Below are positions 14,498 to 46,922 of a DNA stretch of 64,000 nt, in pieces. The translations under genes and the position numbers were made by a program. Under the pieces are notes generated by a model. The model saw only the letters and a program-made list of their open reading frames with translations. It searched no databases and was not told where the DNA came from. The DNA comes from Candidatus Poriferihabitans sp. (lineage in GTDB: Bacteria > Pseudomonadota > Gammaproteobacteria > Arenicellales > Poriferihabitantaceae): assembly GCA_965220975.1 (NCBI GenBank), contig OZ244855.1, forward strand, positions 2,384,967 through 2,448,966. The letters are read 5' to 3'. The stretch's first letter is position 1. Each line of letters starts with the position of its first letter.

Positions 14498-14530
14498 GGC
14501 AGAGGCAGTGTCTGCCGCGGTAATGATGCC
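14498..14530 (+). repeat. dyad core site a (candidate recombination site)
   Basis: The sequence is GGCAGAGGCAGTGTCTGCCGCGGTAATGATGCC. It contains the core GGCAG-TGT-CTGCC that is invariant in all six porin 5' ends. Confidence 0.8.
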
Positions 14531-15437
14531 GATTGGGGCACAGGCGGAAAGCGAATTGACGGTTTATGGCCATGTTCATAATGCGCTTGTAAGCAAGAGC
14601 TATGAAGGCGACAAGGAATCAACAACTGATATTGATAGCTTGGGATCAAGATTCGGATTCAAGGCTAACAGCGATTTAGGAAACGGGCTTATTGGACACG
14701 CTCAACTTGAAATTCAGGTTGCTGCCGATCAGTCCACAGGAAAGAACACAACCCGTCTTGGTTTTGTCGGGCTTTCCGGCGGCTTCGGCAAGGTTACTAT
14801 CGGGAGTCAGGGAGCAGCCTTCAAGGGATCGTTGCATATGGATCAGAGCATCTGGGAAGGTGGAATCGGAGGAACGACCGGAGCGCGACACTCGAATACG
14901 ATCAAGTATTCAAATGCCGTTGGCCCTCTAAGTTTGCAGGTTGACCTGACGGCTAATGACAGTGATGACAACATCCAAGGCCCTGAAGGCAATGGCGGGG
15001 CTATCGGCCTGAAAGCGTCATTGACGGACAACATTGAATTGGGTTTTGCCGCCGAAATGAAAGAGCATGAAAACATGGACAACGATTGGATCGGCGTATC
15101 TGGGAAGGTTAGCCTGGGTCAATTCTTTGGTGCTTTAGGTTGGACAAATAACGAAACAACGAAAGCCAATGGCGAAACGGATAAGGATATTGACTATACC
15201 CAATTTTGGGTAGGCGCAGATGTAGCCGATGGTACTTCAGTAATCTTTGGTTATGGCGAAAAGGATGATGGTGACGATAAAGCCACTCCCAGCGCAACCA
15301 CTTTTGGGGTATTCCACGACATAGGCGGGGGCTTGGCCGTATGGTATGAAGGACAAGTCAACGATGACGATGATGATGCGGCTGTTAATGATAATTATGA
15401 AGCAATTCACCGTATAGGACTTCGGTACATCTTCTAA
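14508..15437 (+). CDS. porin paralog a (Gram-negative porin family), lacking start codon and n-region of the signal peptide
   Basis: Porin hallmarks are present: TVYGHVHNALV, GSRFGFKANSDLGNGL and a C-terminal GLRYIF. Upstream, the frame reads stop-CGQICCTDDFPAEA-VSAAVMMPIGAQA with no ATG. The track start is the GTG of VSAAV. Confidence 0.8.
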   Translation: MSAAVMMPIGAQAESELTVYGHVHNALVSKSYEGDKESTTDIDSLGSRFGFKANSDLGNGLIGHAQLEIQVAADQSTGKNTTRLGFVGLSGGFGKVTIGSQGAAFKGSLHMDQSIWEGGIGGTTGARHSNTIKYSNAVGPLSLQVDLTANDSDDNIQGPEGNGGAIGLKASLTDNIELGFAAEMKEHENMDNDWIGVSGKVSLGQFFGALGWTNNETTKANGETDKDIDYTQFWVGADVADGTSVIFGYGEKDDGDDKATPSATTFGVFHDIGGGLAVWYEGQVNDDDDDAAVNDNYEAIHRIGLRYIF

Positions 15438-15465
15438 GCCCACTGTTATATAGAGGAAATAAACA

Positions 15466-45829: not shown

Positions 45830-45857
45830 TGTGTATTCCTCTTAAATTGAATCAGGC

Positions 45858-46922
45858 CTAGAAGTCGTAGCGGATGCCAATGTGATGGACAACTTCGTCA
45901 TCGGCACCGGCTACATCTTTATCCGTGGAACCGCCTTCGTACCAGAGCTGCAACCCGCCGCCCATGTTGTGGTACAGTCCGGCCGCAATCTTGCTTGGTT
46001 CGGCGACCACATTTTCAGTTTCTTCCGTTGAGTAGCCAAGCCATCCCGAAGTGCTGTCCGAAAAGCTCATGCCGACATAGCCGGCAACATATTCCTTGTC
46101 GGGCTGAGCCACCCCGGCACTGTCTTCCGATTCATGAGAGCTCCAGCCCAGAGCACCCCAGAACTGGCCGAACGACAGATTGGCAGAGATGCCGGCCCGG
46201 CTGTGCTCATGACCACGCGTTGTTGTTTCGCCCTTCGTTTCACGGCGATTAGTGTCATCAAGAGGGGTATTATTGGTAAAATTGGGGTTTACCTCTTTAC
46301 GGACACTGGGTGAAGTGGTAGTTACAATATCGGTTTGATCATCCACATCAAAAGCGACTGCAAGCGTGACATTCTCGGTTGCGGCAACCCGGATGCCGAT
46401 GCCGCCACCATTGCCGGACAGTTTATCCCCTTCATCGCCCTCATCACCGAGACGCAGATCCGCCTCCAGGGCCAGGGGGCCAACCGAGTTGGAATACTTG
46501 ATGGTGTTGGGAGAGCGGTAGGGAGTACCGCCGATCGGGCCAATCGTCCAGGTCGGATCAATGTCCACGCCAACCGTGTTGTAGAAGGCGGTCCACTGGT
46601 TGCCCACGTCCACCCGTCCGAAGCCGCCGGAAATGCCCGCCGTTGCGATGCGGGTAGAAGTGATTCCGTCGGCACCGTCATCGGTATTGGTACCGAACTC
46701 GTACCGGCCATGAGCGGTCAGACCATTGCCCAGATCGGAACTCGCCTTGACCCCAAACCGAGATCCAACGCCCTGAATATCGGCCGTCGAATCATTCATG
46801 CCGCCCTTGTCTTCAAGGACAATTGCGTTGTTGATCCGACCGTAGACGGTCATGTCAGCCTGTGCCCCGACGGGCATCATCACCGCGGCAGACACTGCCG
46901 CAGCCACTAAGGATTTTTTCAT
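45858..46922 (-). CDS. porin paralog f, the only copy with RBS, ATG and a complete signal peptide (expression-site candidate)
   Basis: The RBS GAGGAAA lies 8 nt upstream of the ATG at 46920-46922. The signal peptide is MKKSLVAAAVSAAVMMPVGAQA, followed by DMTVYGRINNAI, and the C-terminus is GIRYDF. An AT-rich promoter-like region lies upstream. Confidence 0.88.
   Translation of the reverse strand: MKKSLVAAAVSAAVMMPVGAQADMTVYGRINNAIVLEDKGGMNDSTADIQGVGSRFGVKASSDLGNGLTAHGRYEFGTNTDDGADGITSTRIATAGISGGFGRVDVGNQWTAFYNTVGVDIDPTWTIGPIGGTPYRSPNTIKYSNSVGPLALEADLRLGDEGDEGDKLSGNGGGIGIRVAATENVTLAVAFDVDDQTDIVTTTSPSVRKEVNPNFTNNTPLDDTNRRETKGETTTRGHEHSRAGISANLSFGQFWGALGWSSHESEDSAGVAQPDKEYVAGYVGMSFSDSTSGWLGYSTEETENVVAEPSKIAAGLYHNMGGGLQLWYEGGSTDKDVAGADDEVVHHIGIRYDF
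46873..46899 (-). repeat. dyad core site f (inside the signal-peptide coding region of the complete porin)
   Basis: The reverse complement reads GGCAGTGTCTGCCGCGGTGATGATGCC. In this copy the dyad extends to GCGGCAG-TGT-CTGCCGC. Confidence 0.8.

Follow-up and report, generated by a model that had tools for sequence, protein, structure and literature searches.

Described switching systems and how the locus compares

In the R64 shufflon (Rci, sfx), the vsa locus of Mycoplasma pulmonis, and type I hsdS shufflons, a fixed 5′ segment with the promoter faces alternative 3′ bodies in both orientations; the short junction repeats of such multi-inversion loci are conserved mainly on the body side, and inversion is their sole productive outcome. 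In the SusC/SusD shufflons of Bacteroides fragilis, a barrel gene and the gene of its partner surface lipoprotein are switched together; the inversion sites fall within the 5′ portion of the barrel gene. We analyzed a stretch of 64,000 nucleotides (nt) of contig OZ244855.1, positions 2,384,967 to 2,448,966 (the window), from Candidatus Poriferihabitans sp., a sponge-symbiotic gammaproteobacterium of the Arenicellales. It carries six paralogous porin genes (a to f) with adjoining lipoprotein genes and a single complete 5′ end; a system of cassettes served by one expression site, whose exchange takes place at a defined site of 24 to 27 nt, is well supported.

The variant genes of Dichelobacter nodosus reportedly lack 5′ ends of their own and have short crossover sites in the 5′ coding region. 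For the outer-membrane protein genes omp1A to omp1D of this gammaproteobacterium, multiple site-specific inversion has been proposed (Moses et al. 1995, Mol Microbiol 17:183; cited in PMC4196234, PMC5903667, and PMC3241671). Among systems based on donor copies, the intact, 5′-less donors of Anaplasma msp2/p44 have been called “functional pseudogenes,” and Msp2/P44 may itself act as a porin (PMC4534519); in the vmp system of Borrelia hermsii, the UHS homology block overlaps the region coding for the signal peptide (PMC6011951).

As the papers citing that work portray it, the D. nodosus locus resembles the present one in its gammaproteobacterial host, in its several linked variant genes for a major outer-membrane protein, and in the site-specific inversion proposed for them. 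By the same accounts, it is a compact locus of four genes whose sites are listed with the 26-bp sites of the Din family (Hin/Gin/Cin) of serine invertases, whereas the locus described here consists of whole-operon cassettes (a porin plus one to three surface-lipoprotein genes) spread over more than 32 kb, with other copies hundreds of kb away and defense islands in between. A test for membership in the Din family (Hin/Gin/Cin/Pin/Min) failed: by inspection, the site GCAGAGGCAGTGTCTGCCGCGGTGATG is GC-rich, unlike the AT-rich 26-bp hix/gix sites with their two 12-bp half-sites and 2-bp core, and there was neither a match to Hin, an invertase type of about 190 aa, nor an invertase nearby. The omp1 genes are nonetheless a precedent, and the preliminary description of this DNA, which was aware of no such case for porin plus surface-lipoprotein operons in a gammaproteobacterium, overstated the novelty.

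The locus is like the R64 shufflon in that its sites are conserved mainly on the body side and in that one 5′ segment is combined with several promoterless bodies bearing the same site in both orientations. It differs from R64, vsa, and hsdS in three respects: those systems encode the recombinase beside their segments, and none was found in the window; their segments measure a few hundred bp to a few kb, against operons of 2.7 to 5.6 kb set between unrelated islands; and they vary a pilus tip adhesin, lipoproteins, or specificity subunits rather than a porin together with lipoproteins. The union of barrel and lipoprotein in one switched unit recalls the B. fragilis SusC/SusD system, which belongs to another phylum, pairs a TonB-dependent SusC with SusD, and has a dedicated tyrosine invertase (Tsr) adjoining it. 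A single expression site and many promoterless donors, kept intact without 5′ ends, are features shared with msp2/p44, vmp, and Neisseria pilE/pilS; in those systems, however, donors are copied and not moved, usually only a hypervariable segment is involved, and there is no defined short site with scars, whereas here full-length operon cassettes stand in inverted pairs. We assign the locus to none of these systems, because no recombinase of the kind that defines them was found and the site does not pass the Din test. We found no paper describing such a system in sponge symbionts or Arenicellales. The switching logic is known; the novelty lies in what the cassettes contain (operons of a porin plus surface lipoproteins), in the site and the scale, and in the symbiont as host.

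Porin cassettes, the shared site, and re-pairing

A listing of open reading frames (ORFs) and their translation reproduced all six porins where the preliminary description had placed them (Table 1). Their strand order (+,−,+,−,+,−) amounts to three convergent pairs, and the members of a pair have common hairpin terminators. The six genes can be aligned end to end, and their products end in ...R(Y/F)(D/I)F, with F as the final residue in 6/6; e and f match Pfam Porin_4 (E values of 1e-24 to 3e-25, 88 to 90 bits against a cut-off of 27) and Porin_1 (36 to 47 bits against 23.7). By the Pfam cut-offs passed (e and f) and the C-terminal aromatic residue, a to f are general bacterial porins. No other copy in the window is more than 82% identical to f. 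Some 200 kb away from the locus, a low-coverage contig of the same strain (L059, ctg52187) carries a seventh copy, g. GC skew in the window tracks the coding strand of the cassettes and carries no information on past inversions.

Table 1. Positions of the main features (in the window unless another locus is named)
Feature	Position	Strand	Remarks
Putative expression-site leader	46923-47110	−	AT-rich; repeated ATACCA motifs; possible extended −10 TGGTAATAT; ribosome-binding site GAGGAAAT
Head	46900-46922	−	ATG and first signal-peptide codons (MKKSLVAA...); sole such 5′ end in the window
Exchange site of f	46876-46899	−	GGCAGTGTCTGCCGCGGTGATGAT
Porin a	14508-15437	+	Silent cassette a
Porin b	19903-20943	−	Silent cassette b
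Porin c	27897-28985	+	Silent cassette c
Porin d	33178-34428	−	Silent cassette d
Porin e	37476-38738	+	Silent cassette e
Porin f	45858-46922	−	354 aa; copy behind the head; Pfam Porin_4 at 1e-24
Cassette a	14504-18196	+	Site 14504-14527; porin a; lipoproteins a1 15466-16920 and a2 16949-18196
Cassette b	18259-20947	−	Site 20924-20947; porin b; lipoprotein b1 18259-19872
Cassette c	27905-31215	+	Site 27905-27928; porin c to 28985; lipoproteins c1 29015-30268 and c2 30343-31215
Cassette d	31893-34432	−	Site 34409-34432; porin d; lipoprotein d1 31893-33149
Cassette e	37472-41238	+	Site 37472-37495; porin e; lipoprotein e1 38767-41238
f1	43688-45829	−	Downstream of f; 713-aa surface lipoprotein; predicted TbpB/HpuA/fHbp-like C-terminal barrel
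f2	42799-43719	−	Downstream of f
f3	41306-42544	−	Downstream of f; second-type lipoprotein; 84% identical to a2
AB-type silent flank, copy 1	14326-14503	+	Inverted repeat at 20948-21126; third copy at g
AB-type silent flank, copy 2	20948-21126	−	
Flank-to-flank junction	L059, 5056	−	Low-coverage contig of the window's own strain
Flank-to-flank junction	L062, 6634	−	
Flank-to-flank junction	L106, 4695	+	
325-aa tyrosine recombinase	L022, 11039-12217; L025, 11026-12024; L026, 3902-5014; L028, 11780-12844; L035, 6861-7847		

As first described, a normal 5′ end is found in f alone (TTGAGGAAATATCTAATG followed by MKKSLVAAAVSAAVMMPVGAQA), where a ribosome-binding site (RBS) precedes an ATG and the residues MKKSLVAAA. 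Upstream of a, b, d, and e, the reading frame meets a stop within 12 to 18 codons, with no ATG, GTG, or TTG on the way. Copy c keeps VAMAVSAAV, with an in-frame GTG and ATG, and is without a K/R n-region and without a Shine-Dalgarno sequence; its left flank, GTGGCTAT, is similar to the head, GTGGCTGC. The 300 nt upstream of the head are 98 to 100% identical in sister strains, and we infer that the leader acts as a promoter; a generic scan of the window for sigma-70 promoters and terminators gave matches no more frequent than chance. Five or six spaced ATACCA repeats occupy a very AT-rich part of the leader (46990-47095, minus strand) upstream of the possible extended −10, an array that looks like one bound by a regulator.

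The preliminary description had also held that the start-less copies are maintained rather than decaying, and this agrees with the comparisons that follow. All five are unbroken ORFs of 300 to 420 codons. Copy b, which is start-less here and in the related loci L061 and L105, has ratios of nonsynonymous to synonymous substitution rates (dN/dS) of 0.14 and 0.10 against those two orthologues (the orthologues give 0.24 against each other, on only 9 substitutions); the ratio is 0.31 to 0.48 for porin e and 0.31 for a flanking control gene. Silent copy b is under purifying selection, and such constraint implies that it is expressed at least some of the time.

All six porins carry GGCAGTGTCTGCCGCGGTRATGAT. 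In the DNA alignment, GGCAGTGTCTGCCGCGGT forms a run of 18 nt that is invariant in 6/6, synonymous positions included; the next longest invariant run measures 8 nt, and elsewhere the genes are 50 to 78% identical. The 13-mer GGCAGTGTCTGCC occurs 6 times in the window against 0.07 expected by chance, and the site is present in both orientations, three copies per strand. Silent copies read GCAGA-GGCAGTGT-CTGCCGCGGTGATGAT and the head GCTGC-GGCAGTGT-CTGCC... (the site with the center GGCAGTGT is also written as GCAGAGGCAGTGTCTGCCGCGGTGATGAT); the left side of the f site, GGCTGC, forms a 7-bp inverted repeat, GCGGCAG-TGT-CTGCCGC. Immediately before the core stand (G/A)GCAGAGGCA in a, b, d, and e, GTGGCTATGGCA in c, and GTGGCTGCGGCA at the head, so that about 9 conserved bases (GCAGAGGCA) extend beyond the head-identical stretch; these are kept in all silent flank families of both species compared.

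The second of these species is represented by the “Arenicellales bacterium” metagenome-assembled genome (MAG) OZ241374.1 (2.99 Mb), the nearest genome in the GTDB set, in which all 7 copies retrieved read GCAGA-GGTCGTTT-CTGCCGCGGTGATG. Only the center differs between the two species (GGCAGTGT versus GGTCGTTT), each version being fixed in every copy of its own genome; to either side of it, GCAGA (left) and CTGCCGCGGTGATG (right) do not change. This pattern fits a site in which binding arms flank an overlap region whose sequence has to be the same in the two partner sites; as a result of the change in the center, the GTG at this position is gone as a start in OZ241374.1. The 22-nt site had no match in the GTDB representative genomes, a set without this species, and the 42 matches of the 18-nt core in Joint Genome Institute metagenome contigs were set aside, all being chance matches in unrelated genes.

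Several copies of the site appear scarred. One in L105 has a 5-nt deletion in the core (GGCAGTGTCTG^GTGATG), and copy g, which has an AB-type flank, bears an in-frame deletion that starts inside the site after CTGCCGC and removes the end of the signal peptide and the first strand. At three “empty” junctions, F1-GGCAG(A)GGCAGTGT-CTGCC-rc(F2), two silent flanks meet head to head with no porin body between them; loss of a cassette may have produced them, or else recombination that was misaligned at the nearly palindromic core. The last 40 to 60 nt of the silent flanks (14389-14503, 27850-27900, 34433-34480, and 37425-37470; also L006, L007, and L036) fall into few families, of which the D-type (...CGATAGCTTGATCC...CTCTTGTAGCA) and E-type (...TTTTCTCGC..TATCGAGATAGA...) ends are recognizable in the sister species too, and a TATCGA/TCGATA motif recurs 30 to 55 nt upstream of the site. 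Such families and the motif may represent accessory sites or common ancestry.

Flanks and bodies have been re-paired at this site. Profiled in bins of 50 to 100 nt on both sides, identity between related loci shifts at the site from about 100% to 35 to 80%. Over 600 nt, one flank in L002 matches that of c at 98 to 100% identity, and the bodies behind the two flanks are only 60 to 86% identical; the body of b is 90 to 100% identical to the third porin of L003, and the flanks are unrelated. The c-type flank recurs at about 100% identity in L002, L060, and L106, joined there to other bodies: in L060, for instance, the c flank (99.5% over 4.7 kb) leads into the first 604 nt of the e body (99.8%). 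Two loci from one metagenome, L061 (310x) and L062 (5x), show 100% identity over the roughly 2.9 kb that follow the site, through porin and lipoprotein, and are unrelated upstream of it.

Flank-by-body clustering of 26 occurrences of the site core (three flank-to-flank junctions included) from ten sequences placed e-type bodies behind four flank families, b/c-type bodies behind four, and the Y body behind two, with f-type bodies following the head in the window and a silent flank in L105. The silent body of L105, from a sister strain, clusters over its first 300 nt with the expressed f at ≥90%; as whole proteins, f and P0030 are 81% identical. One more flank, whose translation reads MLRNDMSVCYGFHRVNDFPAEA, precedes 4 different bodies in fused form. 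Since the silent flanks fall into at least 7 unrelated sequence families, there is no promoter common to the silent copies. Taken together, these sequences indicate that DNA is exchanged at the common 5′ core among close strains, and because strains with different flank-body pairings also differ by 0.2 to 3% in sequence, the exchanges are recent on an evolutionary scale.

Stop-to-stop ORFs from 59 sequences (the window and 58 related loci) were searched with a porin hidden Markov model. Many porins of this genome, of a 3.2-Mb sister genome and its co-occurring strains, and of OZ241374.1 are cut at the same point (...AE(A/V)|VSAAVM...); the 3.2-Mb genome has at least 10 porin copies in the cluster listings. 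Farther afield lie sponge-associated Poriferihabitaceae and Ca. Spongiihabitans MAGs, and in more distant relatives, MKKSL heads are joined to f-like, b/c-like, and long d/e-like bodies. In outgroup Arenicellales/Poriferihabitaceae, every porin paralogue has a full head of its own, MNKKLIAAAVSAAV or MKKTLIATAVSAAL (MNKKL.../MKKTL...), from which it follows that the one-head layout is a derived trait of a small clade. At the start of the 3.2-Mb linear contig, 10 kb of its own expression locus are repeated in inverted orientation (L105, ctg10140 261-21256; compare L003, same contig, 319094-340083, reversed); this repeat is 99.25% identical to its own copy and 99.98% identical to a 354x contig of another strain. 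The repeat is either a real duplication or a mix of haplotypes in the assembly, which probably forks or mixes haplotypes at the expression locus of this genome.

Proposed switching and its alternatives

The reading toward which we lean, with guarded confidence, is a recombinational surface-variation locus with one expression site, start-less cassettes, and cassette exchange at the shared site, with inversion by a site-specific recombinase. Porin f and its lipoprotein genes would be driven by the expression site, which comprises the AT-rich leader, the RBS, and the ATG with the opening nine codons of the signal peptide. The silent porin bodies start at signal-peptide codon 10 and belong to cassettes without promoter or start codon of their own; beyond the five in the window, more such cassettes lie elsewhere in the genome. 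Breakage and rejoining inside the site would let whole cassettes change flank partners; if the head site recombined with an oppositely oriented site (that of e, c, or a), the intervening DNA would be inverted and another porin-lipoprotein operon thereby placed in frame behind the promoter. The enzyme would be a site-specific recombinase, probably a tyrosine recombinase, whose gene would lie beyond the window; switching would proceed within clones at a useful rate, and its purpose would be to vary phage receptors, host-exposed antigens, or both.

Switching had been proposed in the preliminary description, and the parts of that proposal that stand are the single expression site, the maintained start-less cassettes, and exchange at the 5′ core; inversion itself, frequent switching within a clone, and a dedicated recombinase are still hypothetical. 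The arrangement is the same in a second sample: the exact e protein, present on a 3,368,333-bp contig in NCBI/ENA, is also encoded on a 6x, 324-kb metaMDBG contig assembled from a different metagenome, and over 21 kb this contig runs colinear with the window at 99.98% identity. Sister strains that occur together, three in all (coverage 1268x, 354x, and 52x; mutual identity about 99%), have the same head-linked porin. Nine predicted chimeras of the head with another body (a to e plus four sister-strain bodies) gave 0/9 exact matches in a collection of 15 billion proteins, in which the exact f protein is present from the 3.37-Mb contig, and public data yielded no junction of the head with any of bodies a to e. 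All of this weighs against the proposed switching, as do several features of the related loci. An attempt to derive the sister-strain arrangements from the window by a few inversions fails, as neither the number nor the position of cassettes and islands agrees; the sister species has lost or lacks the inner palindrome GGCAG/CTGCC; and the low-coverage contigs (4 to 6x; L062 and L106, 4 to 5x) could hold assembly errors. The AB flank exists in three copies and bodies in several near-identical copies in sister genomes, and the head-linked P0021 of the sister strains is a mosaic, about 94% f-like for some 550 nt and then 89% b-like, with the lipoprotein of b.

The missing enzyme belongs among the same objections. 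The preliminary description had noted no recombinase gene in the window, and Pfam scans of its ORFs and tblastn with known recombinases were likewise empty: Phage_integrase, Resolvase, and Recombinase had no match in the ORFs scanned (most of those of at least about 120 aa; five of 71 to 93 aa were left unscanned), and tblastn with five tyrosine recombinases and Hin returned nothing in the window, with no Hin match in related loci either. Two recombinase searches, taking the best 120 matches of each, gave no homologue on this genome's contig among the matches listed. Candidates outside the window were rejected. In L003, a gene with a weak Phage_integrase match starts the list, the only recombinase near a head in a relative (1.5 kb upstream of it); the gene is truncated (230 aa), belongs to a broad integrase family, and lies inside a strain-specific insertion that the window lacks, and an integrase trio in L005 is part of a transposon-like element. 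A 325-aa tyrosine recombinase (79 to 84% identical among copies) sits beside or between full-length porin clusters with near-identical 5′ ends in five outgroup sponge-symbiont genomes; it was discarded as the enzyme, its orthologues occurring only in the outgroup clade, whose porins all keep their own heads.

The alternative that survives best, unlikely in our estimate yet deserving to be taken seriously, keeps the same architecture and has exchange proceed by RecA/RecF-type homologous recombination or nonreciprocal gene conversion with no dedicated recombinase, on the model of pilE/pilS, Anaplasma msp2/p44, or B. hermsii Vmp, the 24-nt block serving as upstream homology and the block over stop, RBS, and lipoprotein signal as downstream homology. 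It would account for the empty recombinase searches; moreover, the site is the only stretch (18 to 45 nt of identity) able to support pairing between paralogues that are 70 to 80% identical, and a second conserved block, over the porin stop codon, RBS, and lipoprotein signal peptide (pairwise identity, 0.68 to 0.80), puts homology on both sides of the variable part. The mosaic bodies, the linkage of one and the same porin to different lipoproteins in different strains, and the presence of near-identical bodies and flanks several times in one genome are what conversion would leave, and UHS/DHS exchange in B. hermsii (PMC6011951) and the functional pseudogenes of msp2 (PMC4534519) are precedents. 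Against it, flank-to-flank joints across the 5-nt palindrome arm and deletions that start in the core are not made by homologous recombination; conversion has no need for the extra conserved bases (GCAGAGGCA) by which silent flanks differ from the head; and the cassettes are complete operons in inverted pairs, the window's expressed body being no copy of a silent one. Homologous recombination or gene conversion must nevertheless act as well, because conservative inversion alone accounts neither for the duplication of flanks and bodies nor for the mosaic structure of the porin bodies. Both processes, site-specific inversion and homology-driven exchange, are probably at work, and we rank inversion first for moving whole cassettes.

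A bolder form of the site-specific reading, which strikes us as rather improbable, makes the convergent cassette pairs movable modules of an unrecognized site-specific recombination system with arms (GCAG ... CTGCCGCGGTGATG), a matching center, and a distant recombinase that would invert, exchange, and remove cassettes, leaving empty sites behind. A mutualistic sponge symbiont would thereby have programmed variation of its main porin and surface lipoproteins, an antigenic-variation machinery outside pathogens that is set in a defense island and probably directed at phages, host phagocytes, or both.

That the six genes are fixed paralogues, each transcribed from its own upstream DNA, translated from an internal GTG or ATG, and exported without any switching, is very improbable. 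All copies are intact, b is under purifying selection, two samples share one arrangement, and a, b, d, and e have a GTG at the junction with GAGG 2 nt upstream. A start at this GTG (MSAAVMM...), however, would give a 13-residue presequence without a charged n-region, and expression in place from it is unlikely because of that presequence and because GAGG stands only 2 nt before the GTG. In OZ241374.1, the junction position is GTT, not GTG, in all seven copies, and the first possible start leaves about 8 residues before the cleavage site. Fixed paralogues would also leave unexplained the unrelated silent flanks (≥7 families) with no common promoter, a DNA site invariant even at synonymous positions, and the re-pairing at that site. 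Least probable of all, the start-less copies would be decaying relics of duplication or insertion sequence (IS) rearrangement, re-paired by incidental scrambling in a mobile-element-rich symbiont, as the IS256-family copies and other transposases adjoining cassettes, the in-frame deletion in g, the 5-nt deletion in one site, and an L002 porin copy split by an IS might suggest, but five unbroken ORFs with a dN/dS of 0.10 to 0.14 in silent b, breakpoints that coincide with one 24-nt sequence and not with IS ends, and the same truncation point in two species speak against it.

Lipoproteins, neighboring islands, and implications

Each cassette had been described as carrying one to three lipoprotein genes on the strand of its porin. 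The lipoboxes bear this out for all of these genes except f2, whose product is not obviously a lipoprotein: L(A/S)GC (e.g., L-A-G-C-G-G) lies at residues 17 to 20 in a1, b1, c1, c2, d1, e1, and f1 and at residues 24 to 27 in a2 and f3. The first lipoproteins of the cassettes have in common the lipobox signal peptide and a C-terminal region of about 150 to 250 residues. Profile matches stayed below threshold (NF041636 slam_lipo, 24 and 21 bits against a cut-off of 80; Pfam TbpB_B_D in f1, 18 bits against 26), and since a profile search of PDB sequences with the C-terminal domain gave no match, a fold search was used. An AlphaFold2 (AF2) model built on seven paralogues has eight strands in residues 128 to 268 at a predicted local distance difference test (pLDDT) score of about 64 to 92, the N-terminal 90 residues being unreliable. 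The top 26 PDB matches of this model in Foldseek were all HpuA, NHBA, TbpB (C-lobe), or fHbp (E values of 3e-6 to 2e-3), with template modeling (TM) scores of up to 0.54 to 0.68 on barrel-only entries. By this model, the lipoproteins have a predicted TbpB/HpuA/fHbp-like fold with an eight-stranded C-terminal barrel; no Slam (DUF560) translocator was found among the window ORFs scanned. Their dN/dS of about 0.93 to 0.96 is as expected for exposed, diversifying, or weakly constrained proteins. An inverted repeat of 1047 nt (17201-18247 and 41255-42301; 94% identical) covers a2 and f3 and is the longest near-identical stretch between two cassettes, a possible substrate for a 23-kb inversion.

The only DNA-mobility genes in the window are two inverted, 100% identical IS256-family (Transposase_mut) copies at 2674-4073 and 21858-23257. 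A repeat, “X,” at 11161-11784 and 21083-21727 is 98 to 100% identical and carries an ORF of 123 to 130 aa. Together with the AB flanks, the IS256 copies and repeat X bracket an 18-kb segment that contains lgt, a tetratricopeptide repeat (TPR) gene, aprBA, and cassettes a and b, an arrangement that would offer further scope for large inversions. The genes aprA and aprB and a membrane-anchor-like gene adjoin lgt (7153-10329), and aprBA suggests a sulfur-oxidizing lifestyle of the symbiont. Rfam and tRNA scans of the window gave no matches.

Between and beside the cassettes lie low-GC islands with defense-type genes (23453-27524, 34884-36801, 48552-50967, and 55236-61262). Candidates within them include PDC-M04A/B (a DUF3800 pair; E values of 1e-85 and 1e-54), an E1-E2 (ThiF) protein with an NsnB/AriA-like ATPase, an SDH-type protease fragment, PDC-M28B (ParA-like, 617 aa) with an MqsA-like antitoxin, a PD-T4-4_A-like ATPase, and DUF4143 ATPases. 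Their position between cassettes makes variation of phage receptors a plausible purpose of the locus.

For annotation, the one-head layout explains the many 5′-truncated porin genes in these MAGs and the breaks and forks of long-read assemblies at the locus, and the compact site of 24 to 27 nt, with its natural scar products, offers a handle for finding the responsible enzyme. If switching does occur, a beneficial, uncultured marine symbiont would have the single-expression-site surface variation best known from pathogens, and a general porin, which is classically both a gate of permeability and a receptor for phages, would be co-varied with TbpB-like surface lipoproteins as one operon. The locus sits among candidate antiphage systems, and receptor variation would then be linked to defense islands.

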